Shown here piece after piece: positions 737 through 32,135 of a stretch of 64,000 bases of DNA. The notes under the pieces are model-generated. The model searched no databases and had not been told where the DNA came from. It saw only the letters and a program-made list of their open reading frames with translations. Position numbers and translations under genes: made by a program. How positions within the stretch are numbered: the first letter of the stretch is position 1; each line of letters starts with the position of its first letter. This stretch comes from a virus (taxonomy: Duplodnaviria > Caudoviricetes): positions 32,001-96,000 of the IMG/VR virus record IMGVR_UViG_3300027914_000334; one strand, written 5' to 3'.

Positions 737-1419
737 TATAATTTCATCACTTTCAGTTTAATACTTTTAATGATTTCATTATAAGCAGAATTTCTATTTT
801 TAACACCATCGACGGTTTCTTTGTCTACGCTTATGTTTCCGCGTCTATCGAAGTTGTATTTATTTCCACCTTGCAAATAAGCAGATTCTTTGAATGTCTT
901 GTCTCCAAGTTTATAGAACACAAGATTTATAAGATCATCTTCGAACATATCTGGGATTTCCGTAATTGTCCTATATTTCTCATATTCATAATAAACAGTC
1001 ACTACAGACGTTGGAGTTGGGATAAGATCGAATTTATCTGCGGCAACTATTTCTGCATCTTTTGGATTTAACTTCCTTATGATATCAAGACGCTGAATCA
1101 ATTCAACAGTCTGTGATGGATAGAAAGTACTTAAACTTGAAGATATATCTAAATTGGTTTTAATTTCTGGATCGTTAAATAAAGAAGTAGATTCTTGTGT
1201 GTAATAAACTTGTTTGAGTTTAATCAGATTAGAATCTGTTACGGTATATCTAGTCTGACCAGCAACTGTGTGAATGTGTCCTATTTCAACTAATGGATAA
1301 TATTCGGAAATTGTCTTTACAGCTTTATTAATCATTCTAGTAAGCATAGCATTATCGTATGTTGTTGCTGAAAGACCATAATCTGTTCTAAGTATATCTA
1401 AAATGGTTTCTAATAACAT
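736..1419 (-). CDS. putative head-tail adaptor/connector protein
   Basis: 227 aa; N-terminal helical segment 'ILDILRTDYG...LTRMINKAVK' and 'TVAGQTRY' are reminiscent of adaptors; lies downstream of the capsid gene. Confidence 0.45.
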   Translation of the reverse strand: MLLETILDILRTDYGLSATTYDNAMLTRMINKAVKTISEYYPLVEIGHIHTVAGQTRYTVTDSNLIKLKQVYYTQESTSLFNDPEIKTNLDISSSLSTFYPSQTVELIQRLDIIRKLNPKDAEIVAADKFDLIPTPTSVVTVYYEYEKYRTITEIPDMFEDDLINLVFYKLGDKTFKESAYLQGGNKYNFDRRGNISVDKETVDGVKNRNSAYNEIIKSIKLKVMKL

Positions 1420-1422
1420 AAA

Positions 1423-2127
1423 TTATCCTTTCTTACACACCTTATACAATAGGAACTTCCAGTTGTATTTCTTCATGAATTCCCAACCGGGAATATACAG
1501 GTTGAACATCTTCTGATAGTATGACTTTACACCACATTTCATACCAAACTTAGAAGCAATCTCGTCAAATTGGGCTTTTGTGAAGATTGTTTCGTTTTCA
1601 GAAACTTTCTTTTCTTCATTATCCATGTTTAGGATGCAGAACACAATAGCTCCATCCTTACATACTTTATTAATCTGATCCATTACAATATACAACTTGT
1701 TACGTGGAATATAATTCATCATAAACATCGAATGAACAAAGTCTATAGAGTTGGGTTCTATCATCTCCAAATCCCAAGCAGGAGAACATACAGTTTTAAT
1801 ATTTTTAAATGGAGACTTAGAAATAGCATAATTAGAAATATCAACACCAATGCTATTTGCTCCATAATCTGCAAATGCCGATGTAATAGCTCCCATAGCA
1901 GAACCAAGATCGAGCACATTCTTTCCTTTGATACCAAAAATCTTATCTATAAAATAGGCATACATCATCTGCCAAGCACCCTTGGATGATACGTCAATAC
2001 CATGCATTTTTAATCCATCAAAATACTCTTGTTCAAACGATATAGGTGTTTCAAGCGACTGTTCTGTTTGTTGTATAGTTTCATCTTTAATTTCTTCAGT
2101 TACTACATTCTTACTTCTCTTAGTCAT
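1423..2127 (-). CDS. class I SAM-dependent methyltransferase
   Basis: motif I VLDLGSAMG, then GVDIS and SIDFVHS. Confidence 0.85.
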   Translation of the reverse strand: MTKRSKNVVTEEIKDETIQQTEQSLETPISFEQEYFDGLKMHGIDVSSKGAWQMMYAYFIDKIFGIKGKNVLDLGSAMGAITSAFADYGANSIGVDISNYAISKSPFKNIKTVCSPAWDLEMIEPNSIDFVHSMFMMNYIPRNKLYIVMDQINKVCKDGAIVFCILNMDNEEKKVSENETIFTKAQFDEIASKFGMKCGVKSYYQKMFNLYIPGWEFMKKYNWKFLLYKVCKKG

Positions 2128-2128
2128 A

Positions 2129-3166
2129 TTATTCTCCTACTATTGATTCGATCTTGGTTTGTATTTTTGATATTAATTCATCTTCATTGAAACTTCGCAT
2201 ACAATTTATCTTTCTTTCGCAAAACTTTTGCGTTTCAAAGCAAGGTTTACAACCGATCATTTCCGCTATAGAAATAGACTTAGCCTTTTCTGGATATTGT
2301 GGATGTAAAGAAACTCGTTCTTCTTCTCTAGTAGGCCCAAGTATTACGAGTACAGGACAATTTGCTGAATGAGCCATCCACAACATTCCAGAATCCATTG
2401 TTATACAACAATCCAATTGCATAAGAGTTGCTATAACCTGATATGTGTCTAATTTACCACATGTGTTAATGATGTTCGTACCTTCAAAACCCTTAGAAGC
2501 ATCAGCATCGAGTAAAACAACTGTATACTTTTCTGCTAGTTTATGGCTTATTCTCTTAACTAGTTCATAGTTAAGAGTTTTTAGCATACCAGAACCACGA
2601 ATTTGGATGCCTATTTTCTTTCTTTTTGTATCCATATAGCTAACAACATCCTTGCTTAGATGTGTAGGGTTCCAGTCAAGGTCTTCTTTATTTATGCCAT
2701 GAATTCCTAATATATTCAAATAGATTTCTACTCTATGTAACTGATTCTCATCATTACTAAGACTATGATCCTTCTCAAGACACCCATTTAGATTGAAACA
2801 AATATCGTTGTTAGTGAAAGTTACAGCAGAAGATTCGGTATTAAATCTGATATCTCTGTATATATTTCTAAGTTTCATACAATATTCATCGGTTGTTGTT
2901 ATCCATACATTTTTAATATTATAATACTTTTTAAAATATCTAGCTACTGCTATTAGTTGTATTAAGTCACCAAGCGCATAATTTCTCAATAAGTATACAT
3001 TATTTAAATTTTTAAACATATCGGTATTAAATTTTACAAAAGCATATTCTGGCAAATACTTAAATGCTGTAGATTCAACAACCATACCGGGAGCAACAGC
3101 AACTGGAAATATTGATGTCGGAACATCAAGTACTTGTGTTAGTTTGCTTCTATTAACCATTAACAT
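2129..3166 (-). CDS. glycosyltransferase family 9 (heptosyltransferase-like, GT-B fold)
   Basis: N-domain ALGDLI; C-domain ITMDSGMLWMAHSANCPVLVILGPT (GT9 DSG..H.A...P....FGPT pattern) and CKPC. Confidence 0.85.
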   Translation of the reverse strand: MLMVNRSKLTQVLDVPTSIFPVAVAPGMVVESTAFKYLPEYAFVKFNTDMFKNLNNVYLLRNYALGDLIQLIAVARYFKKYYNIKNVWITTTDEYCMKLRNIYRDIRFNTESSAVTFTNNDICFNLNGCLEKDHSLSNDENQLHRVEIYLNILGIHGINKEDLDWNPTHLSKDVVSYMDTKRKKIGIQIRGSGMLKTLNYELVKRISHKLAEKYTVVLLDADASKGFEGTNIINTCGKLDTYQVIATLMQLDCCITMDSGMLWMAHSANCPVLVILGPTREEERVSLHPQYPEKAKSISIAEMIGCKPCFETQKFCERKINCMRSFNEDELISKIQTKIESIVGE

Positions 3167-3776
3167 TTAATATGTTCTCCGCATAAGAAATCTCATCTTG
3201 GGTTATAGGTATTGAAAAATCATAATTATCAACGTTTATTCCAAAAAATCTTTCGTATAGTTTAGTTCTGTGTATGAGTCTTTCGCTATTCGTTAAACTA
3301 TGATCTTGTTCAAGAACACCATCTAAGCAAACTGTTTTATCATAGTTTGACTTTTTATACAAATTAAGATTTATCACATCATCAAATGCATCTACAACCC
3401 TCTTCATTGGCCCAACAAATCTTTCTTGTGTTATTAAAGATATCCTAAAGTTATATATCTTTTTAAGATGTCTAGCTACTGGCAATAACATAATTAAATC
3501 ACCAAGAGCACCAAATCTAATGATACCAAGTTTAAATCTGATATCCTTATTTTCCTTTGATGTTTGATCTATTACTTTTGTTTCTTGTGGTATTGACTCT
3601 AAAGGTTTATTGAATTTCAAATCATCTTCTGATAAAAAATATTCCTCTTTCAATAATATTTCTGCTATCTTGTCTGGAACATCAGTCCAATTATTTCTAA
3701 CAAACTGTTTGAAATAAGAATATTGCATTAGACATATCTGTATTTTCTCATATAATCCAGTGTATTTTATTTTCAT
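3153..3776 (-). CDS. GT9 N-terminal half-domain protein with extra N-terminal domain
   Basis: IIRFGALGDLIMLLPVARHLK; shares LDGVLEQDHSL..HR with the neighbouring GT9 and lacks the DSG C-domain. Confidence 0.7.
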   Translation of the reverse strand: MKIKYTGLYEKIQICLMQYSYFKQFVRNNWTDVPDKIAEILLKEEYFLSEDDLKFNKPLESIPQETKVIDQTSKENKDIRFKLGIIRFGALGDLIMLLPVARHLKKIYNFRISLITQERFVGPMKRVVDAFDDVINLNLYKKSNYDKTVCLDGVLEQDHSLTNSERLIHRTKLYERFFGINVDNYDFSIPITQDEISYAENILNVNG

Positions 3777-3817
3777 ATAATACTCCTATATTATGATATA
3801 CAGCTACATATAGAAAT

Positions 3818-3847
3818 AAACAAGGGGTGGATTTCTCCACCCCTTGT
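3818..3847 (-). terminator. intrinsic terminator after the major capsid gene
   Basis: ACAAGGGGTGGA-GAAA-TCCACCCCTTGT followed by a T-rich tail on the minus strand. Confidence 0.75.
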
Positions 3848-3893
3848 AGTTGTCATAAGCGTTTAATGATCTTAAACGCTTATTTTATGCATT

Positions 3894-5039
3894 TCACGAA
3901 CCGGTAATTGTTAATACTCCTAACAAATCCCCTCTGACGCACTTCATACCGGCGCGGCTAAGGATAGCGCGTGTGGTAACGAAGGTATCAGGATTGGTGA
4001 AAGGATCGGAGAAGTAGGACAGGATGTAAGGTGCCCACACGTAGCAGGTATCCATCCAGTTAGAGGCGTTGTTGTAACCCATGAGAACCTTGTTGGCGGG
4101 GAAGAATGGGTCAACATAGATGCGCCAGCGGCTATTCAGGGTACCCATGAAGTAACGGCCACCGGTAGAAATGATCTTCTGTTCAACGGTAGCGGCATCA
4201 TCGGCGCGGAAACCAGCCATCTTCTCCATGAAACCAGCTACTTCGGCAGGAACCACGATCCAGTTGGTCTTGCGATAGGTCTTCTTGAAGATTTGCGTAT
4301 CGATATCGATAAGCTTCTCGTAGAAGGTTTCCATCCAAACCTTGCGGTCGGTATAGGTGATACCAGCAGGAACGCTCTGGTCGAAGGTAGCGGCACCACC
4401 GGTAGCTCCATCAAGCATGTCTTGAAGAACCATGCGATCCCACTCACGAACGATTTCAGCACCGAGAGCGAAGTTAAGATCGGAAGCAACGTTGATACCA
4501 TGATAAGCCATGATATCTTGATAGCTTTCGATTGTATTCGACGCCTTAAGCTTCTTCTCTACAGCGGTGAGTGAGCTATCGGTGATCTTCAGTACGATTT
4601 CTTTGATAGCCTTGGGAGAATTTGGGTTGTATTCCTCGTTATCAGCATAGGTGCGGCGGTTGTGGATGTCGGCACTTACGGAAGTGGCATCGTCGCGCTG
4701 AATGTCATAGTAGAAAATCTTGGTGGTAGGCTGACTCATCGGCTGAACGCTAACGAGTTCCTGCGAAATCATCGAAGGGAATACCTTGCGAATGAGAGGA
4801 AGTTGGGTCTTGACGAAGGTAGCCGCAGAAGCGTTGGTAGTCATAGCTTCCTTGATAGCTTCGTAAGAAGGCAGACCGGTCTTCAGACCGAAATCCTTGA
4901 TGGCGTTGTCGATGAGGACAGCCATCTTGTTTTGCTGAACTTTGGCGAGGTCTTCATTTTTGGTGTAGTGAGTAACACCTTCCATGAGATGACCAAAGGT
5001 CTTGAAAATCTGCTCATTGCGTTCGGTAAAGGTTTGCAT
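3894..5039 (-). CDS. major capsid protein (T4 gp23-like)
   Basis: LPLIRKVFP..ISQELVSVQPM.QPT, EI.RE.DR, YVWAPY, P.TF...RAI.SR; strong codon bias typical of highly expressed genes. Confidence 0.93.
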   Translation of the reverse strand: MQTFTERNEQIFKTFGHLMEGVTHYTKNEDLAKVQQNKMAVLIDNAIKDFGLKTGLPSYEAIKEAMTTNASAATFVKTQLPLIRKVFPSMISQELVSVQPMSQPTTKIFYYDIQRDDATSVSADIHNRRTYADNEEYNPNSPKAIKEIVLKITDSSLTAVEKKLKASNTIESYQDIMAYHGINVASDLNFALGAEIVREWDRMVLQDMLDGATGGAATFDQSVPAGITYTDRKVWMETFYEKLIDIDTQIFKKTYRKTNWIVVPAEVAGFMEKMAGFRADDAATVEQKIISTGGRYFMGTLNSRWRIYVDPFFPANKVLMGYNNASNWMDTCYVWAPYILSYFSDPFTNPDTFVTTRAILSRAGMKCVRGDLLGVLTITGS

Positions 5040-9783: not shown

Positions 9784-10818
9784 TTATTTCGAAAAAAAAT
9801 TTCTATAAAACATAACAGATTCATTAATAGTATCAGCTATGTTCTTATTTGAAAATCTGTTATTTTTAACGATTTCGATTATACTAGAACTTTTAAAATT
9901 ACTCAATGGTATTACAGGAATTCCTAATTCTTCAGCAGCAATACCTCTAGTATCTACTCTAATTAATACAGTTCTGCCACCAATACCGTGAATTGGTAAT
10001 GCAGTGTGTAGTCTAGTCGAAATACATATATCAACATGACTATAAAATTCAATCATTTCTTTGGAATTATTAAATCGCACACATTCACCAAATGTATTAT
10101 TAGTAAATTCATAGTCGATTATATTTACCTGTGCGAAAAATTTACATGGCTTACCAGTATAATTTTCTATGAATTGTTTGGTTTCTTTTATTTCCGTTAT
10201 TAATTCTTCTTTATCTTCTCTGTTTTTAATATAATCGGCTGTGATATTAATTGCATTATATTGTTTATCTGTATTAAAGATTCCATGTTTCAAACAAGCA
10301 AATGTTCCAGTACATGGAAGTAGCGTTGAATTAACATTATTTGTTTCTAAGTATCTTTGAGCCATCTTGTCTCTAGTTGTAATTAATTTTGTGTTATTAC
10401 AGGCTTTATCCAAAATTATTTCATTGAGAAGTGATTTGTTAAGATGTGCAGCAAATTCATCTGGAGTTATAGACTCAGATGGATAACCACCACCACCGGC
10501 CAATCTTAGAATAGGAACACCTGTATAGTTTAAATAATCCCATATTTCATTATCGTAGAAAAATCTCCACTCTTCAAAATTGTTATATTGTGGCATACCA
10601 CCATAAATTATAAAATCACACGTTCTCATAATCTCCATCTGTTCTCTAGTGAAAGGTTCCCATCTACTTATAAGCACCCATTCAATAGGTATTGGTTTAA
10701 GTGCTTCTTCAATAATATATTGAAGACCATGACCAATGAAACAATCACCCACATTTGAATTGTTATAGCTTTCTTGATTTGTCTCATCAATAATCCTTGT
10801 CAGCAATGCTATTTTCAT
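9784..10818 (-). CDS. polysaccharide pyruvyl transferase family protein
   Basis: N.NVGD, IIYGG, TRD and ISTRLH motifs. Confidence 0.8.
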   Translation of the reverse strand: MKIALLTRIIDETNQESYNNSNVGDCFIGHGLQYIIEEALKPIPIEWVLISRWEPFTREQMEIMRTCDFIIYGGMPQYNNFEEWRFFYDNEIWDYLNYTGVPILRLAGGGGYPSESITPDEFAAHLNKSLLNEIILDKACNNTKLITTRDKMAQRYLETNNVNSTLLPCTGTFACLKHGIFNTDKQYNAINITADYIKNREDKEELITEIKETKQFIENYTGKPCKFFAQVNIIDYEFTNNTFGECVRFNNSKEMIEFYSHVDICISTRLHTALPIHGIGGRTVLIRVDTRGIAAEELGIPVIPLSNFKSSSIIEIVKNNRFSNKNIADTINESVMFYRNFFSK

Positions 10819-11105
10819 TTTTTTATTCCCTTCACATAATCGTCAAAGTCTTTCAGTATGCTCTCTAGTGTCTCTTCATTGCTTGGCTCATTATTGGTAA
10901 GAGTTGTTGGTAATAATGAATCGTCTTGAAATTTCATATTCACATGACAATTATATACTAACTGTCCTACGGCGTCAGCTAAGTCCTTACTATTATGAAC
11001 ATATGGACCATCACTTAATTTAAAATTATTAAATTTTTCAACTTCTATATCATAAACAGGTACAGCTATTTTTAATTGAATCCTAGTTGTTTTCTTTATT
11101 TTCAT
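10815..11105 (-). CDS. terminase large subunit C-terminal fragment with split-intein C-half (IntC 10992..11105)
   Basis: VYDIEV..NNF.L..G.YVHN followed by Ser+1 and KDLADAV. Confidence 0.9.
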   Translation of the reverse strand: MKIKKTTRIQLKIAVPVYDIEVEKFNNFKLSDGPYVHNSKDLADAVGQLVYNCHVNMKFQDDSLLPTTLTNNEPSNEETLESILKDFDDYVKGIKK

Positions 11106-11799
11106 TTGATTTCATCCATTCTTCTAAAAAATTTATAGCGTCCTGTTCTGTTAAAAACCATCCTAAATGTTTTTTATATTTTACAACTCTCCACTTTTCT
11201 TTTGCTTTACGGCAATGAGAGTATGATACTCCTGTAACTTTTGAAGTTCTATTGCATTTATTATGTGGTTGGCTTTTAATAACTCCAGAATAATCTATAA
11301 CATCTGGATAATTTAATATGGCAAATTCTCCACGCTTTTCTCTAGCTTCCTTATCATATGCTAGGGCTGCAATATTTGCTGTCTTATAATATCCAATCGA
11401 TTTACCATCTATGGACGCTTTATAACAATTTTGACTTTCCTTTGTAACACCAATAAACCCACATTCGTTTGGAGTTCTAATGGAATTCCACGCATTACCT
11501 TTGTAATCTGTCAATCTTAAATTTTCTTTTCGATTATCAAGGCGATTATGATTCTTATGGTCTATAACTACACCATCTCCAATTTCCAAATTAAACACAT
11601 ATCTATGAGCAATTATATTTTTTTGAACAATATTATTTTTTGAATGGCTTCCAGATATATGTTTTACAGTAATGGCATAGCCATCATGATAGTACCACTT
11701 ATGTTGTATAAATTTCTCATAATCCTCATCATCTACTAACATTACTTTTCCACAGCCACTATTACCGTTAAGTTTAATTTCTTTCATATTTCCCTCCAT
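11083..11799 (-). CDS. free-standing HNH-AP2 homing endonuclease
   Basis: LVDDED, IDHKNHNRLDNRKENLR, AP2 motif GYY.T...AALAYD..A....GEFA.LN, second AP2-like repeat. Confidence 0.9.
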   Translation of the reverse strand: MEGNMKEIKLNGNSGCGKVMLVDDEDYEKFIQHKWYYHDGYAITVKHISGSHSKNNIVQKNIIAHRYVFNLEIGDGVVIDHKNHNRLDNRKENLRLTDYKGNAWNSIRTPNECGFIGVTKESQNCYKASIDGKSIGYYKTANIAALAYDKEAREKRGEFAILNYPDVIDYSGVIKSQPHNKCNRTSKVTGVSYSHCRKAKEKWRVVKYKKHLGWFLTEQDAINFLEEWMKSNENKENN

Positions 11800-11825
11800 A
11801 TGATCTTTAGTATATAACAGTATGG

Positions 11826-13889
11826 TCAGTCTTGTAAATCATCATTATCGTTAAGTTCATCAGCTCGTTTATAAATACCACTTTTTAATAAAAATCTATG
11901 ATCTGGAGTGCATCTTATCTTTTTACCATTTTCAAATTCCAATTCTATTAATTCATCAACATATTTTGTCAATTTCCAATCTTTAACTTGAGATATGGTT
12001 TCGTTTTTATTATTAATATCATAACATTTGCACATTTTACCCACCAATTTGTCTTTATCGTCTATTCGGACTAATGATCCATCTGCCAATTCTATTTCAG
12101 TATCTCCAATGAAACAACCCTTCACCGGATGGTCTATCTTATCATTAACATAATTTCTTTCTAGTCTATTAAGCTCATCTTCCAATACTGGATGATATAT
12201 GCATTTAACTCTATTTTCATACAATGCTGTTCTAAATGTCTCATATGGTTCTGTTGTTTTATCCATAGATATATAATCGAAATTAACTCCGTTTCTTCGC
12301 AAAATTTGTTGCATATCTGCCGACTGGAATCCGTCAGCAGAACCATACTTGATCTTATATCCAAGCTTTTTGAGCTTGAATATCAAGAAACGTAGCCTAG
12401 ACAATTCTACTTCTCCAAACTCTGCCTCTGGATAAACCTGTAATAACATTTCAACTTTTACTATAGGTAATCTTGCTTTTACCACTTGCATTTGCTGTAT
12501 TTCATCATTAAAAAATTCTCGCTCAATAGATACCAAGTCTTCGATATATCCCATAGCAAAACCAAGCTTATCTTTTTTAAGACCAATATCCATGGCGATA
12601 TATCGAATCTTATCTCTATTATCTGGCTTGAATTTAACGATCTTCTCTATACATTCATACTGTGGTTTTGGAGACAGGGTAGCCTTATCAACTGAGAATA
12701 CTCGTTCGATAGATTCATCGAACATCTCTTGAATCTTTTCTTTCTGACCAACAAAAGGCTGGACAGAGTAAACGGCAACACCGGCTATATCTCTAAGAGC
12801 ATTGTCTATGTCCTTCTTGAACTTGTCATAAAAGTCAACAGGAATAGAGATAACATCACCAACAACATCGGTTTCGTTACCATCGAGAATTCGACTTTTT
12901 CTGTTAAGACCACCGACCTCAACCTTGAACTCTTCCTTAGAATACCTATCTCTATTAACTTTCCAAAGGTTATAATCTAAGACATAGGTTGTCTTATCTT
13001 CGGCTTCCTTTGCTAACTTAATGCGTTGTTCTGTGAAGTCATTTGGATACACACGAGAAGAACCGACATATAGAATACCGGGCTTTCTTCCTGCTTTTAA
13101 GAAGCGTGATTCCTGTCTTCTAAGTAGCGAGTTGTAGAGAACAAGAGCCTCATCATACATACCATCTGGGTTGTTTCCGCGTTTTGAATTCTCTACTACC
13201 TTGAAGAAGTTGGCTTCGTCCAGTGCGGCTGAGAATATATTCAAACCAATAGCTGATGACTGTGAAGATGATCCATTGAAGAATTCTATATTGCTTGGAA
13301 ATTGCAAAGATTCGCTTGCTCTTTTATCATCGAAGTAAAAATTCTCTTTAAAGTAGTCGATAGCCTTAACCATTTCCTTAACAGCACCGAAGATATTTTT
13401 CTTCGATTGTTTCTCTGTAATAGATATTACCATGATACCTATCTTGGATACTTGCGACAATCCGAAGTATCTTTGTGGGTTCTTGAAACATGACAGTAAA
13501 TACAGATGCCATAACAATCCAAGTTCCATGAAGAATGATTTTCCAAATCCAATACCACCAGTAGCAACAACTTCTCTATATACTGCGTTTATATCATGTA
13601 CCTTACAGAACTCATCTTTAAGAACCGGATACATGGTTTCAGCAACACCAGTTCCTGTTTTGGGGTTTCTTCCACAATAATAGCCATCTTCTAGGAATAC
13701 TCTAGGAGTGACAGGTTCATGTTTAAAAGGATACATATCTTCTATAACGTCTGAAAACAAATCCTCAATCACCAAATTTAATATTTCTGTATTATTTTGA
13801 TGTTTCTCGACAATATGACGGGTTTCTGGCTTTGCCATTAACATTTTATTGATAGCAGATTTTATCTGGTCTTTATTAAAAAATTGCAT
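11826..13889 (-). CDS. terL: terminase large subunit N-terminal fragment with split-intein N-half (IntN 11829..12116)
   Basis: Walker A GGIGFGKS, Walker B AALDEANF, nuclease MDIG..KD and DGFQS; ends CFIGDTEI...IRCTPDHRF...stop. Confidence 0.92.
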   Translation of the reverse strand: MQFFNKDQIKSAINKMLMAKPETRHIVEKHQNNTEILNLVIEDLFSDVIEDMYPFKHEPVTPRVFLEDGYYCGRNPKTGTGVAETMYPVLKDEFCKVHDINAVYREVVATGGIGFGKSFFMELGLLWHLYLLSCFKNPQRYFGLSQVSKIGIMVISITEKQSKKNIFGAVKEMVKAIDYFKENFYFDDKRASESLQFPSNIEFFNGSSSQSSAIGLNIFSAALDEANFFKVVENSKRGNNPDGMYDEALVLYNSLLRRQESRFLKAGRKPGILYVGSSRVYPNDFTEQRIKLAKEAEDKTTYVLDYNLWKVNRDRYSKEEFKVEVGGLNRKSRILDGNETDVVGDVISIPVDFYDKFKKDIDNALRDIAGVAVYSVQPFVGQKEKIQEMFDESIERVFSVDKATLSPKPQYECIEKIVKFKPDNRDKIRYIAMDIGLKKDKLGFAMGYIEDLVSIEREFFNDEIQQMQVVKARLPIVKVEMLLQVYPEAEFGEVELSRLRFLIFKLKKLGYKIKYGSADGFQSADMQQILRRNGVNFDYISMDKTTEPYETFRTALYENRVKCIYHPVLEDELNRLERNYVNDKIDHPVKGCFIGDTEIELADGSLVRIDDKDKLVGKMCKCYDINNKNETISQVKDWKLTKYVDELIELEFENGKKIRCTPDHRFLLKSGIYKRADELNDNDDLQD

Positions 13890-13953
13890 TTTTTACCCCT
13901 TGACTTTTGCCAAAATACGTTGTACAAACACATTATCATTAATGGAGGTTTGT

Positions 13954-14778
13954 ATGGCTGATAATTTAGTTATTTTAATTCATGGTAAAGCGTTTGCAGG
14001 TAAAGATAGTGTTTACAACACTCTAAGAATAATGACCTCAAAATACTTCCAGAACATAACATACAATGATTATCAGAGTTTTGTAAACAACGTATATACC
14101 GAAACAGTTCCAGAATTTCTAATGCAACATGTAGAACACTGTATTCGCGTTCCATTTGCTGATGAAGTGAAGAAAGAATTATGTAGGATAAATCCAAAAG
14201 TAGATTACCAGAGGCTTATGTCCGATCCAGTATATAAGTCTTCATTCAGGAAAGAACTCGTAGAAATAGGAGATGGATATAGGCAGGATGATCCGGCTAT
14301 CTGGGTTAAGAAACATAGAGAAACATTCTTCCCACTCCTGAAGAAAATATCCAAGAAAGTTGTATTTATTACTGATGTAAGGTACGTCAATGAATATAAC
14401 TATGGGGAAGAGATCGAAAAAGAGACAAACAATATAGTGTTAAGAATCAAGATAGATGCCCCACTTCCAGATAGGCTTACTAGAATGTCGTATGATGCTG
14501 TTAAGAAGTATGTGAAATACAGCAAATATAACGCTGGTGAAAATATGGAAGAGATTTCTGAAAGGGCTGGCTGTAAGCTGAAATGGGATTTGGTAATAGA
14601 TAATCCAAATTTCACACCAAGTAATAGCTTCAATGCGATACCATATATCCCATTTCTTCCTGTCATAACAAATACAATAGCATATAACGGTTATTATACA
14701 GATTTATTTAAAATGCTGTCTCCACAATTACAAACAATAGCAAAATTATATGAAAATATGAGGGAAGCTAGAATATGA
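13954..14778 (+). CDS. P-loop dNMP kinase / phosphomevalonate-kinase-like protein
   Basis: GKAFAGKD, FAD.VK, R..LV..GD..R..DP..WV, ITDVRY.NE; GGAGG RBS before ATG 13954. Confidence 0.75.
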   Translation: MADNLVILIHGKAFAGKDSVYNTLRIMTSKYFQNITYNDYQSFVNNVYTETVPEFLMQHVEHCIRVPFADEVKKELCRINPKVDYQRLMSDPVYKSSFRKELVEIGDGYRQDDPAIWVKKHRETFFPLLKKISKKVVFITDVRYVNEYNYGEEIEKETNNIVLRIKIDAPLPDRLTRMSYDAVKKYVKYSKYNAGENMEEISERAGCKLKWDLVIDNPNFTPSNSFNAIPYIPFLPVITNTIAYNGYYTDLFKMLSPQLQTIAKLYENMREARI

Positions 14779-15416: not shown

Positions 15417-15949
15417 TGAATTATCATTTATTTGATAATATATTGAATAACATAACAAACGAAGCTATCCGCAAGTTTACAATCAACGTTCTTGATGCCT
15501 GTGATCCAATCCTAGAAAAGATTCCAGCGTCTACATCTGGTAAGTATCATCCAGAAGAATGTTGTAGAGAAGGTGGGCTTGTGATTCATATTTTACGAGC
15601 TTGCTTCTTCGGTAATATGTTAATAAATTCTATGAATTTAGATAAGAATGACATAAAAGGAGATATAATTCTTTCTTCATTGCTTCTTCACGATATTGCA
15701 AAGAAGGAAAAATATAAAAACTATCAAGAATACGATTTTCATCCAGTTAATGCGGCTAGACACGTTGAAGTTTTCAAAGGTAATTTAAACGAAACGTATT
15801 TTAAATTGATACAGGAATGTATTAAGCATCATATGGGTCCATTCATGGGAAATACATACAAGAAATCACTATCCAAATATAATATTTTGGAATTGATTGT
15901 TTATCAGTCAGACTACCTAGCTTCAAAGAAGGAAATAGATATTAAATGA
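15416..15949 (+). CDS. HD-domain hydrolase
   Basis: PAS.SGKYHP, GGL..H, LLHDIAK, HMG, DYL.S. Confidence 0.85.
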   Translation: MNYHLFDNILNNITNEAIRKFTINVLDACDPILEKIPASTSGKYHPEECCREGGLVIHILRACFFGNMLINSMNLDKNDIKGDIILSSLLLHDIAKKEKYKNYQEYDFHPVNAARHVEVFKGNLNETYFKLIQECIKHHMGPFMGNTYKKSLSKYNILELIVYQSDYLASKKEIDIK

Positions 15950-16719
15950 AATATATAGATATCCCAAATAAAAATATTAAGAATGTAATATATATGGTAA
16001 CAAATATCATAAATGGGAAGTCATATATAGGTCAAACAATATATTTGCTTAGAAAGAGAATGACTAAACATAAGTCCGGTAATAATACATATCCATTGGG
16101 AATGGCTATTAGGAAGTATGGTTGTGAAAACTTCGAAGTAAGAATCCTACACAAATGTTCATCTTTAGATGAACTAAATAGGTTAGAAGTAGAAGAAATT
16201 AAAAACAGAAATACGTTAATACCAAATGGGTATAATATAGAAATTGGAGGAAATAATAAATGTTCAAACGAGGAAAGTATTAAAAAGATAAAAAATTGGT
16301 ACAAAAATAACAAAAGAAAATTCTCTGATATAATTAATAGTAAAGAAAACCGAGATAAAGTTTCAACAAATACGAAAATTGGGATATATAAAAAAGTTGG
16401 GGAGATTGAACGACGACGTAGTTTAATGTTTGAGAGAAATAAAAATGATTTTGACAAAAATTTACTATTGATGACAAAACTAGTGGAATATATTAGATAC
16501 GAAGATGCGTTTATTTTAAATGAACATATGATTAATGACATAGTAAGATTTATAAAAGCCAAGTATTCAATACCTTCTATATGGAAGTCACTCAAAACGA
16601 AAAGATATCTAAGAAATATCTATGGAGATTGCACAATGTTATCAATAGGTAATATTAGAGGTATTATAAAACGTCATGATCTATTGGCAACTTCCCAAAA
16701 ATGCATTGAAATCAAGTAA
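15946..16719 (+). CDS. GIY-YIG homing endonuclease
   Basis: VIY.VTN.INGKSYIGQT, AIRKYG, E...I, PNGYN. Confidence 0.88.
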   Translation: MKYIDIPNKNIKNVIYMVTNIINGKSYIGQTIYLLRKRMTKHKSGNNTYPLGMAIRKYGCENFEVRILHKCSSLDELNRLEVEEIKNRNTLIPNGYNIEIGGNNKCSNEESIKKIKNWYKNNKRKFSDIINSKENRDKVSTNTKIGIYKKVGEIERRRSLMFERNKNDFDKNLLLMTKLVEYIRYEDAFILNEHMINDIVRFIKAKYSIPSIWKSLKTKRYLRNIYGDCTMLSIGNIRGIIKRHDLLATSQKCIEIK

Positions 16720-16805
16720 GAACTATCGTAGAATCTATACAGTAACGGCGAATGGAGTATTTAAAATTTTACTCCATTCGCCTATTTATACTACCGGAGA
16801 AGGAT

Positions 16806-19739
16806 ATGTTCACAAAACTTTCACAAGAGCAAATTAATTCTAAGAAAGATTTTATTCGTCATTTTATTGGAAGTAAAAATGCGGCAGATGGAAGCACAGT
16901 CGATGCCAATGCTAACGTTACAACCAAGAACATAGCTAATCTACATGGAGAAATCCATAAAGATATCAATATTCAATTAAACAGAGCTATGAATTACGAT
17001 AAGATTAAGGAACTGTTTGGTGAACATTTAGCAAAAGAATACTTACGGCAGATAAATAGCCATGAAATCTACGTTCATGATGAGTCTAATATAAACCTCC
17101 CGTATTGTGTTGCATTATCTTTGCATCCTTTCATTACAAATGGATTAAAACAGCTTGGGGGAGAATCAAAGGCTCCTAAACATATTTCTAGTTTCTGTGG
17201 TGGATTTGTAAACCTTTTGCTTGCTGTAAGTGGACAATTCGCCGGAGCATGTGCAACCACCGAATTTTTTATTTATATGGATTATTTTGCCAGAAAAGAT
17301 TACGGAGAAAATTACCTTGAGACACATAAAGCGGAAATAACTCAGCATTTACAGCATGTAGTATATGTAATCAACCAACCAGCGGTAGCTAGGAATAGTC
17401 AATCTGTATTCTGGAATGTTTCTATCCTCGATAAGTATTTCATGAAAGGTTTATTTGAACATTTCAGATATCCAGATAATTCCGAATTGAATTACGAAAG
17501 CGTTGATAAGTTACAATTCTTCTTCTTAAATTGGTTTAATAAAGAACGAGAGAGAACTGTTCTTACGTTTCCTGTTGTTTCTGTTTCTATGTTAAGTGAT
17601 ACAAAAACAAATACTCCTAAAGATTATGAATTCGCTAATAAGATAGCCGAAGAAATGGAAAGGAAGAATAGCTTCTTTATATATCATAGTAATAGCGTTG
17701 ATTCGTTAAGTTCTTGTTGCTTTACAGGAGATCAAAAGACGCTTACAAAATCTTCTAATGGTGTAAATTATATGTCATTCGAAGAACTTGAAAGGTCTAA
17801 ATATAATGACACAAAACGCAATTTTACTATATTTCATAACGGATCATGGTGCAAAGGAAATATTGTAAAAATTCAATATGGTGGAAAAATTACAGAGGTT
17901 GTTACTGTTAATAACAAAGTAATAAAAGTTACAGAAGATCATATTCATGCTACGTTAGATGGCGACAAAAAAACTTCCGAATTGACAGAAAACGACTATC
18001 TATTATTTTCAAAATTGGAACTCAATACATTCCCAGAAAAAGACCTCAATCTTAAGGAATATCACGGTATGCTTATAGGAGCATATCTTGGTGATGGAAG
18101 CTGTTATGTAAATGAAGCACTTTCAGAAGACGCAGAAACAAAATATGCTGTTAATCTTTCTATTAACGAAGATAAATACAAAAAACTTATTGTTGCTTTA
18201 AGAATGGTATGTAAGTCTATACATGGAAGTTATGACTGCTTAAAATTACATAAGTCATATAATAATGTATATCCTGTTGTTATTTATTCTAAGAAAATAT
18301 ATGACTTTATCAAATATTGGGTTGGTGGCAATTATGCCGTAAGCAAACAGTTAAATCTTGAATGTTTATTACAATCATCTGATTTTAGAAAAGGTATTTA
18401 CAAAGGTTATTATATTACTGATGGTGGTAATTCAAATCGAATATATACCACATCAGAAGCCCTCTGTATGCAAATGGAAGTATTGTTCACAAGTCTTGGT
18501 ATGCCAACCATCATTGATGTTTCTGATAGGACAGACGAACCAGTTATAATCAGAGGTCAACATTTTAACAGGAATCATAAATTATACTGTATTAGATGGT
18601 ATGCTTCTAACAACAAGCGTTCTATGCAAGATGTATATGTTGTTAGAAACAACAATGTTTACTTTAAGATTAAAAGTCTCAAAGAAGTTAAATATGATGA
18701 AATGTTCGTTTATTGTTTCCAAATGGCCGATCAATCTGAACCATACTTTACACTTCCAAATGGAATCATAACGCACAACTGTAGACTTCGCAACGCTATC
18801 CAGTCTAATGAATTCTCCTATACACTTGGGAATATAGGTATTATGACTGGTTCTATTCATGTAATAACTCTAAATATGAATAGGTTGATTCAGAAATATC
18901 ATAGGAAGTGGATGTATGAAGAAAGAGTTGGAAAACATAGTGAAATGACAGACTTCATAGCTAACAACATACGAGAAGAAATACAAACCATTCACAAATA
19001 TCATGTGGCATTTAGACAGATATTAAAAGATTACCAGTCAGCAGGACTATTACCCGTATATGATGCTGGCTTTATCACTCTGGATAAACAATATTCGACT
19101 ATAGGTATTAATGGACTTGTAGAAGGTTGTGAGTATCTTGGTTTTGAAATCTCTAACAACCCAGATTATATTAGATTTGTCTCTTCTCTTCTCAAAGTAA
19201 TAAGTGATGAAAATAAAAAGGCCAAAGAATCCTATAAGTGTATGTTTAATACTGAATTTGTTCCAGCCGAAAATCTCGGTGTTAAAAATGCCAAATGGGA
19301 CAAAGAAGATGACTATAAAGTAACAAGAGATTGTTACAATTCATATTTTTATATTGTTGAAAATGAGTCTGTAAATGTTATAGATAAATTCATACTTCAT
19401 GGAGATCAAATAACAAAATATCTTGATGGTGGGTCTGCTTTGCATCTTAATCTCCAAGAACATCTGACCAAAGAACAATATTTACATCTCATGAACATAG
19501 CAATAAAAACTGGATGTAGTTATTGGACAATTAATGTTCTAGCTACTTGTTGTGAAGAGTGTGAACATATCGACAAGGATACTCTACTTAAATGTTCTAA
19601 GTGTGGGAGTAGTAATATTACATATGCCACCAGAATTATTGGGTATCTTAAAAAGATATCCTCATTCTCGACACCAAGACAAATTGAAACGTCAAAGCGT
19701 TACAGACATGGAGCAATAACCAATGACATTCGAAGATGA
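16806..19739 (+). CDS. nrdD: anaerobic (class III) ribonucleoside-triphosphate reductase, intein-containing
   Basis: PYC, LTFPV, SC|CR, FVPAENL, C-terminal CxxC..CxxC and glycyl-radical motif RIIGYL; start reassigned to the ATG after the GGAGAAGG RBS. Confidence 0.95.
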   Translation: MFTKLSQEQINSKKDFIRHFIGSKNAADGSTVDANANVTTKNIANLHGEIHKDINIQLNRAMNYDKIKELFGEHLAKEYLRQINSHEIYVHDESNINLPYCVALSLHPFITNGLKQLGGESKAPKHISSFCGGFVNLLLAVSGQFAGACATTEFFIYMDYFARKDYGENYLETHKAEITQHLQHVVYVINQPAVARNSQSVFWNVSILDKYFMKGLFEHFRYPDNSELNYESVDKLQFFFLNWFNKERERTVLTFPVVSVSMLSDTKTNTPKDYEFANKIAEEMERKNSFFIYHSNSVDSLSSCCFTGDQKTLTKSSNGVNYMSFEELERSKYNDTKRNFTIFHNGSWCKGNIVKIQYGGKITEVVTVNNKVIKVTEDHIHATLDGDKKTSELTENDYLLFSKLELNTFPEKDLNLKEYHGMLIGAYLGDGSCYVNEALSEDAETKYAVNLSINEDKYKKLIVALRMVCKSIHGSYDCLKLHKSYNNVYPVVIYSKKIYDFIKYWVGGNYAVSKQLNLECLLQSSDFRKGIYKGYYITDGGNSNRIYTTSEALCMQMEVLFTSLGMPTIIDVSDRTDEPVIIRGQHFNRNHKLYCIRWYASNNKRSMQDVYVVRNNNVYFKIKSLKEVKYDEMFVYCFQMADQSEPYFTLPNGIITHNCRLRNAIQSNEFSYTLGNIGIMTGSIHVITLNMNRLIQKYHRKWMYEERVGKHSEMTDFIANNIREEIQTIHKYHVAFRQILKDYQSAGLLPVYDAGFITLDKQYSTIGINGLVEGCEYLGFEISNNPDYIRFVSSLLKVISDENKKAKESYKCMFNTEFVPAENLGVKNAKWDKEDDYKVTRDCYNSYFYIVENESVNVIDKFILHGDQITKYLDGGSALHLNLQEHLTKEQYLHLMNIAIKTGCSYWTINVLATCCEECEHIDKDTLLKCSKCGSSNITYATRIIGYLKKISSFSTPRQIETSKRYRHGAITNDIRR
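17718..18779 (+). mobile_element. 354-aa intein with LAGLIDADG endonuclease in NrdD
   Basis: starts CFTGDQ, block B VTEDH, LIGAYLGDG and GYYITDG, ends ITHN before Cys+1. Confidence 0.92.
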
Positions 19740-31763: not shown

Positions 31764-32135
31764 ATGAACAAACCAAAAATAGGATATAAGGTTGTAGAGA
31801 TAAGAGATGGCAAATATTTTTCTTCGTCCACCAATTCAAGTGCCAAAAAGCGATACCATATTAATCGTTTTGTAAAAAGACGCCCCTATTTTGGGGCACT
31901 GTGTCTCTTTAAAAATCTAAAAGACGCAAGAAAATATTCTGAAATGTTCGTTCAACAGTTTGTTATATTTCAAGCAGAATATATTCCTAGTGAGGATAAA
32001 GCTCTATGGGATACACGATATTCTGAAAAATTAACCGCTGAATTGCTGGTTAGACGCTATCATTGTATGTCTACTTTTAAAAAGAGCAATATTCTTTTCG
32101 CAGAACAGATTAAACTATTAAAGGAAGTTAAATAA
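31764..32135 (+). CDS. 'KIGYKVV' family protein, copy 1
   Basis: KIGYKVV..SS..Y.IN..V.R...G.LCLFK...I.FAE.IKLL. Confidence 0.7.
   Translation: MNKPKIGYKVVEIRDGKYFSSSTNSSAKKRYHINRFVKRRPYFGALCLFKNLKDARKYSEMFVQQFVIFQAEYIPSEDKALWDTRYSEKLTAELLVRRYHCMSTFKKSNILFAEQIKLLKEVK

Follow-up and report, generated by a model that had tools for sequence, protein, structure and literature searches.

Fractured genes were defined by Dassa et al. in 2009, and a phage terminase was among their hosts (PMC2677866). In that set the terminase intein was the sole exception, being broken at a non-canonical point; the endonucleases were of the GIY-YIG or Vsr-like type, fracturing by HNH endonucleases was predicted, and in 15 of 16 loci a hairpin or late-promoter element sequestered the ribosome-binding site of the endonuclease gene (PMC2677866). 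In this study, a stretch of 64,000 nucleotides (hereafter the window; positions 32,001 to 96,000 of the IMG/VR record IMGVR_UViG_3300027914_000334, Caudoviricetes) was analysed. Its large terminase gene (terL), at 10815-13889, belongs to an uncultured T4-like phage and is most probably a fractured gene, in which a natural split intein is broken at the canonical site into an N-terminal half (IntN) and a C-terminal half (IntC), with a free-standing HNH homing-endonuclease gene between them.

The locus shares with the fractured genes of Dassa et al. (gp41-1, NrdJ-1, IMPDH-1, and others) the order of N-extein-IntN, free-standing endonuclease, and IntC-C-extein on one strand, as well as a canonical split, an acidic IntN with a basic IntC, and the combination of Cys1 with Ser+1. 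It differs from them in its insertion point, which is the terL nuclease motif DHPxxG/SKDxxD (a slash marks the splice junction throughout), in having an HNH endonuclease, and in having no hairpin before the endonuclease start. An earlier, sequence-only reading of this DNA had suggested that the Cys1/Ser+1 pair may be a new orthogonal split-intein tool; a Cys1/Ser+1 split intein in a fractured phage gene is not of a new kind, since gp41-1, NrdJ-1, and IMPDH-1 have the same make-up and a terminase was already known as a host. Natural split inteins in phage TerL are also represented by AceL-TerL, GOS-TerL, and Cat-TerL, which likewise come from metagenomes. AceL-TerL and GOS-TerL are atypically split, with an IntN of 25-37 aa, an IntC of 104-115 aa, and Cys+1 (PMC11766414). 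The window intein, with an IntN of 96 aa, an IntC of 38 aa, the canonical site, and Ser+1, shows none of the features of an atypically split TerL intein and is set apart from all three by their published descriptions. A putative split intein of phage DNA polymerase B resembles the locus in having a free-standing HNH homing-endonuclease gene between its halves, but its host gene is not a terminase and it belongs to another intein lineage; a 2025 preprint describes actinophage inteins with the endonuclease in a separate frame. In a non-exhaustive literature search, no paper was found on a canonical-site split intein at the TerL DHPxxG/SKD motif. Overall, the window locus belongs to the known fractured-gene class, and its own family is large and little annotated.

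The source record, a contig in IMG/VR, is 106,693 bp long and 86% complete according to CheckV, and a single terL was found in it. The region 10815-13889 holds three co-oriented open reading frames (ORFs) on the minus strand, with the following parts:

12117..13889, minus strand: TerL N-extein, residues 1-591, ending in DKIDHPVKG; comprises the ATPase domain and the greater part of the RNase H-like nuclease domain
11826..12116, minus strand: IntN of 96 aa, from Cys1 to DDLQD and a TGA stop; recognised by Pfam Intein_splicing, invariant splicing residues, and superposition on Npu DnaE
11083..11799, minus strand: free-standing HNH homing-endonuclease gene (HNH_3 and a weak AP2-like region), in another frame; recognised by Pfam and phrog_99
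10992..11105, minus strand: IntC of 38 aa (MKIKKTTR..VPVYDIEV..PYVHN); matches the end of the Pfam Intein_splicing profile
10815..10991, minus strand: TerL C-extein of 58 aa, beginning with Ser+1-K-D-L-A-D-A-V; placed by junction alignment and invariant residues

The first ORF (13889..11826) encodes 687 aa, the 591-aa N-extein being followed by the 96-aa IntN with Cys1 at residue 592 (KIDHPVKG/CFIGDTEI); block B lies in RCTPDHRF, and the acidic tail DELNDNDDLQD is followed directly by TGA. After a gap of 26 nt comes the HNH ORF (11799..11083, 238 aa) in a different frame, the true start of which is likely the second ATG, at 11787, downstream of a GGAGGG Shine-Dalgarno sequence. The end of the HNH gene is overlapped by 23 nt by the third ORF (11105..10815, 96 aa), which consists of the 38-aa IntC MKIKKTTRIQLKIAVPVYDIEVEKFNNFKLSDGPYVHN, SKDLADAV, and 50 more residues. 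An endonuclease gene is thus present between the intein halves, on the same strand, with its own frame and Shine-Dalgarno sequence. All of the positions and sequence details in the sequence-only reading hold, including the IntN with blocks A and B at the end of TerL, the 38-aa IntC in front of SKDLADAV, and the arrangement of the halves around a free-standing endonuclease. The IntN and IntC ORFs are in the same reading frame, and 21 stops lie within the intervening stretch. Read-through of the TGA and genetic code 4 were ruled out, since further in-frame TGA and TAA codons follow the IntN stop almost at once; the split can therefore be put down neither to recoding nor to one sequencing error. 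A scan for promoters and terminators gave results at chance level. The terL C-terminal piece is followed by a pyruvyl-transferase-like gene and then by a T4-type portal gene.

The two halves together have the features of a class 1 intein. Pfam Intein_splicing matches the IntN at 1.8e-9, the IntC matches weakly to the end of the profile (134-155), and the intein hidden Markov model PF14890 extends across both halves (57.1 bits, E 5e-17, cut-off 35.8), a match far above what chance would give. Cys1 of block A, the Thr and His of block B (TPDH), the block-F Asp (VYDIEV), the terminal His-Asn, and Ser+1 (VHN/S) are invariant across 24 same-site inteins, both split and contiguous; in 16 homologs of the IntC, V17, Y18, D19, I20, N27, V36, H37, and N38 are invariant. 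The invariance of all splicing residues argues that splicing chemistry, and not merely binding, is under selection. The host protein is colinear with its homologs after removal of the intein, as described below. The net charge is -6 for the IntN and +3 for the IntC, with +5 over the first 15 IntC residues, in agreement with the acidic tail and basic head that had been pointed out from the sequence.

The IntN (model residues 590-687) superposes on the Npu DnaE IntN from residue -1 to 96 with a Z of 12.7 and a root-mean-square deviation (rmsd) of 2.4. Among solved structures, the split intein NrdJ-1 (8UBS) is nearest to it in sequence, with E 4.3e-7 and an alignment that stops where NrdJ-1 is split. 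The break lies between blocks B/N4 and F, which is the canonical position for a split and for the insertion of an endonuclease. When the complex of the IntN with 7 extein residues and the IntC with 12 was predicted, a score of 0.71 was obtained, compared with 0.03 for the best control; the runs shared at least 91% of contacts and the predicted local distance difference test (pLDDT) of the partner was at least 71. A score of 0.71 is attained by 58 of 80 solved complexes and by 2 of 110 mismatched pairs. Since split-intein complexes have already been solved, the predicted docking may reflect likeness only.

The exteins form a divergent TerL, and the N-extein shows 34-35% identity with its counterparts in SIO-2-like Vibrio siphophages. 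The protein spliced in silico has 649 aa and aligns to the intein-free TerL of Vibrio phage 29Fa.3 (E 1e-102) with no gap at the splice junction, DKIDHPVKG-SKDLADAVGQLVYN standing against GKVDHPSDGSKDVADALAGVCYG (GSKDVADAL) in 29Fa.3. Removal of the intein thus restores DHPVKG-SKDLADAV, as had been expected from the sequence. The large ORF carries GFGKS and LDEANF as Walker A and B motifs. In the N-extein, a 31-sequence alignment shows E225, D434, D440, D519, D586, and H587 to be invariant. Homologs of the C-extein ORF invariably have S39, K40, D41, and D44.

The nuclease motif was placed on T4 gp17 by structure, sequence methods having failed: a phmmer search of the PDB gave no TerL match, hhalign of an 8-sequence TerL alignment with gp17 aligned only Walker B, and a Pfam scan of these TerLs found no terminase family. 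The AlphaFold (AF2) model of the large ORF has a mean pLDDT of 83.9; Foldseek matches it to the HK97, D6E, Sf6, and T4 terminases (E 1.7e-15 to 5.8e-11), and VIA-align to solved TerL structures gives Z values of 15-19. Residues 56-589 of the model superpose on residues 107-537 of gp17 (VIA-align Z 17.4), and residues 376-590 on residues 256-425 of the G20c nuclease (VIA-align Z 12.4, rmsd 2.7). In this structural register the N-extein ends at gp17 residue 537, five residues ahead of D542, where gp17 reads E537-G-Y-H-D-D542 within GYHDDLVMSL. The Asp of S-K-D, which is D41 of the C-extein ORF, falls on gp17 D542, which is the third catalytic acid of the T4 terminase nuclease, and on G20c D429, which is catalytic as well. 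The Walker motifs, D434 and D519 in the N-extein, and the third acid in the C-extein ORF are thus all in place for a TerL fold. Since the N-extein stops five residues short of gp17 D542, the model supports the view, already put forward in the sequence-only reading, that the small ORF supplies the last catalytic acid of the terminase nuclease.

The middle ORF matches Pfam HNH_3 at 2.4e-8 over residues 64-96 (..IDHKNHNRLDNRKENL..) and phrog_99, ‘HNH endonuclease’, at 8.6e-30. It had been labelled HNH-AP2, and the HNH part of this label is well borne out. The AP2 part has a weak Pfam match (13.9 bits, E 0.069 for the sub-region, cut-off 33.3, profile 2-53 of 54), and homologs of the protein, in phages that include those of Bacillus and Ralstonia, carry the annotation HNH, AP2, or HNH-AP2 homing endonuclease.

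An independent metagenome contig with 92% protein identity, L007, has the identical three-ORF layout with identical boundaries. At a synonymous divergence (dS) of 0.3-1.5 between the two, the ratio of nonsynonymous to synonymous substitution (dN/dS) is 0.027 for the N-extein, 0.125 for the IntN, 0.126 for the HNH gene, 0.053 for the IntC, and 0.025 for the C-extein. All five parts are therefore under purifying selection and none of them is decaying. The nucleotide identity to L007 is about 0.80-0.84 in the terL and portal backbone, and it climbs to 0.88-0.95 in the cassette and in the roughly 200 nt that lead up to the insertion site. The gene between the terL C-terminal piece and the portal gene (9784-10818, minus strand), which is polysaccharide pyruvyl-transferase-like (PF04230, 1.7e-9), is 99-100% identical in nucleotides to its L007 counterpart, and this tract ends exactly at the gene borders; from the sequence comparison, it appears to be a second, very recent exchange that abuts the cassette.

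The same insertion site is occupied in many other phages. The motif VHN/SKD[LI][AS] is contained in 58 IMG/VR loci; at precisely K[IV]DHPxxG/CFxG[DE]T, about 48 IMG/VR loci carry a contiguous intein, 118-455 aa long, and seven (L008, L012, L015, L021, L028, L042, and L043) a split one. The contiguous inteins (L009-L065) share the insertion point (K[IV]DHPxxG/CFxG[DE]T...VHN/SKD[LI][AS]D) and homologous splicing blocks with the window intein, their IntN parts being 35-43% and their IntC parts 38-56% identical to it, but they are single polypeptides, either mini-inteins or inteins with a nested endonuclease. The contiguous forms run on through ..D[SR]LMP.. and ..NHK[IV]..; at the corresponding places the split forms stop after D[DA]LQ[DE] and start anew with the Met of MK[IV]K, and the terminus D[DA]LQ[DE]-stop is found in the window, L007, L042, and L012. 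When 1.84 billion representatives were searched with a profile, there were 1,618 matches at E<=1e-3, 492 of them at E<=1e-10. Among 156 proteins inspected, 79 are stand-alone IntC ORFs with a Met start, and the IntC is exactly 38 aa long in 51 of these 79, with the consensus MKIKSVKRIKL..PVPVYDI.V....NF.L..G..VHN/SKD. The heads of these ORFs are basic, with a mean charge of +3.5 over the first 12 residues. It had been supposed that automated annotation would miss the C-terminal ORF; gene callers do call such ORFs (15 clusters; 79 ORFs), and what remains of the claim is that they are left unnamed.

The slot between IntN and IntC is filled in different ways among the split loci:

Window and L007: intact HNH gene
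L012 (4320-4990): the same HNH gene, 52% identical, frameshifted near residue 161
L042 (4860-5000): 141 nt, in which 36 aa of the HNH N-terminus survive as a remnant (44% identical, E 0.005)
L043 (1380-2660): 426-aa TnsA-like endonuclease (PF08722, 1.2e-16)
Streptococcus phage vB_SagM-GXN1 and L028: DUF559/Vsr-like nuclease, to which the IntN is fused in frame

We know of no report of a TnsA-like nuclease type in fractured genes. The window, L012, and L042 have a common cassette, with the IntN 37-38%, the IntC 50-58%, and the HNH protein 52% identical, and their TerL N-exteins are just 25-30% identical in partial alignments. By sequence comparison, these three loci represent a decay series of one cassette. 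This fits a scheme in which the cassette moves between divergent terL genes at the conserved motif and the endonuclease later decays, the intein staying split.

In the TerL N-terminal piece of L042 (2979-4859), CFTGDT occurs twice, near residues 351 and 531, a hint that the split intein is preceded by another, contiguous one; a Pfam scan of this piece reported the C-terminal IntN alone. In the cultured phage vB_SagM-GXN1 (L001, PQ819873.1; 176 kb), split inteins interrupt terL (1387-4348) in at least two places. Its ORF 1387-3993 starts with an IntC (..VVSHN/CALMDEIEF, near Walker B) and ends with the DHP/SKD IntN fused to the DUF559/Vsr-like nuclease, ORF 3974-4348 consists of IntC and C-extein, and the GenBank record annotates none of these intein parts.

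A mechanism for the window locus can be proposed as follows. Three proteins would be made from one locus: TerL residues 1-591 with the 96-aa IntN, the HNH(-AP2-like) endonuclease, and the 38-aa IntC with the final 58 residues of TerL. The IntN, which is acidic, and the IntC, which is basic, would come together at the canonical split site as one class-1 HINT fold, and Cys1, the block-B Thr and His, the terminal His-Asn, and Ser+1 would then perform protein trans-splicing in vivo. Ligation of ..DHPVKG to SKDLADAV.. would complete the nuclease active site. The N-terminal piece alone would have its ATPase and an incomplete nuclease, and since this nuclease lacks the third Asp, splicing should be needed for headful cutting. 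The HNH gene would serve as the mobility module, presumably cutting cassette-free terL alleles, after which repair would copy the IntN-HNH-IntC cassette into the cut allele.

Several explanations without trans-splicing, or with another role for the HNH protein, were considered. It is very unlikely that the two TerL pieces assemble non-covalently and that the intein halves serve as affinity domains without splicing. Essential phage genes that are split and still function with their products unligated have been described, e.g. NrdA of phage Aeh1 (PMC3045599; PMC2677866), and the predicted IntN/IntC docking fits such an assembly equally well; however, every residue of the splicing chemistry is invariant in split and contiguous members, which is unexpected if binding alone were selected, and an unspliced intein would lie three residues from the catalytic Asp. 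There is little probability that the HNH gene lies inside a self-splicing intron within the intein-coding sequence, so that a contiguous intein would splice in cis. The shared frame of the IntN and IntC ORFs, which are 723 nt apart, and the common occurrence of HNH genes in phage group I introns speak for this model, which the sequence-only reading had itself raised as a challenge to a split intein. It is opposed by the absence of any Rfam match to an intron or other RNA family in 10000-14500 even at E<=1, which a divergent intron could escape, and by the lack of a significant fold in the flanks before the HNH start and before the IntC start. In addition, many lineages keep both the stop of the IntN and the Met of the IntC in the same place, the IntC starts of relatives have Shine-Dalgarno sites of their own, and the halves are in different frames in L012 and GXN1. 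Moreover, L042 has just 141 nt between the IntN stop and the IntC start, part of which is still HNH protein start, unlike an intron core.

A decaying terL, inactivated by insertion of the endonuclease in a phage that is defective or uses another terminase, is hardly credible either. The record is a metagenome contig and is incomplete, as would suit such a phage; on the other side stand the strong purifying selection on all parts relative to L007, the finding of only one terL in the record, and the same layout kept in independent samples and many lineages. It is also quite improbable that the HNH protein is not, or is no longer, a homing endonuclease and acts as a packaging accessory. HNH proteins work with terminase in HK97-like cos phages, as Kala et al. 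reportedly found in 2014, and the gene in the window lies within the packaging module under purifying selection. However, HNH_3 with an AP2-like DNA-binding part is typical of free-standing homing endonucleases, the ortholog is frameshifted in L012 and nearly deleted in L042, yet the split terL persists, and unrelated nucleases (TnsA-like, Vsr/DUF559-like) fill the same slot in other split loci.

Against the preferred interpretation, that of a terL fractured by a split intein with a free-standing HNH gene, the following points have to be set. No hairpin sequestering a ribosome-binding site was found before the HNH start, where the minimum free energy is -4.5 kcal/mol with a z of +1.09 and 175 of 200 shuffled sequences fold at least as well; such a hairpin is an accessory and not a defining feature of fractured genes. 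The Shine-Dalgarno sequence before the IntC start in the window, which overlaps the HNH gene, is weak (GGAT), whereas strong sites precede the IntC start in relatives, and the RNA fold upstream of this start is no better than that of shuffled sequences. The rise of identity to L007 across the cassette cannot be credited to HNH homing alone, because the nearly 100% identical pyruvyl-transferase-like gene abuts it. Finally, a second terL could conceivably lie in the missing part of the 86%-complete record.

Other selfish elements are found in the window. The gene of the anaerobic ribonucleotide reductase NrdD (PF13597, 1e-94; 16752-19739, plus strand) has a contiguous intein (PF14890, 4.8e-8) with a LAGLIDADG-like middle and borders ..SSC/CFTGDQ.. 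to ..ITHN/CRLRN, and directly upstream of it is a free-standing GIY-YIG/SegE-like endonuclease gene (15946-16719, plus strand). Therefore, the phage hosts several selfish elements.

If the fractured-gene interpretation is correct, an essential virion-assembly enzyme appears to depend on protein trans-splicing, and ligation alone would complete its nuclease site. At this one site, stages of a homing-endonuclease life cycle can be seen side by side: contiguous mini-inteins, inteins with nested nucleases, an intein fractured by an HNH gene that stands free, a frameshifted HNH gene, and a split intein from which the HNH gene is deleted. Phage annotation leaves such terL C-terminal ORFs unnamed, e.g. 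in GenBank PQ819873. The family, with Cys1/Ser+1, a 38-aa IntC, and an IntN of about 96 aa, resembles the fast gp41-1/NrdJ-1 class and thus could supply new split-intein tools, as the sequence-only reading had suggested for the window intein. A wider proposal, which we regard as unlikely in its entirety, is that these loci form a large, seemingly undescribed family of canonical-site Cys1/Ser+1 TerL split inteins, that a terL once fractured stays split even after loss of the endonuclease, as in L042, and that trans-splicing could gate the packaging nuclease post-translationally until both late products accumulate, since the last catalytic Asp sits on the small fragment. If true, a selfish element would have been put to regulatory use, and the family would be a source of many diverged, possibly orthogonal, fast split inteins.

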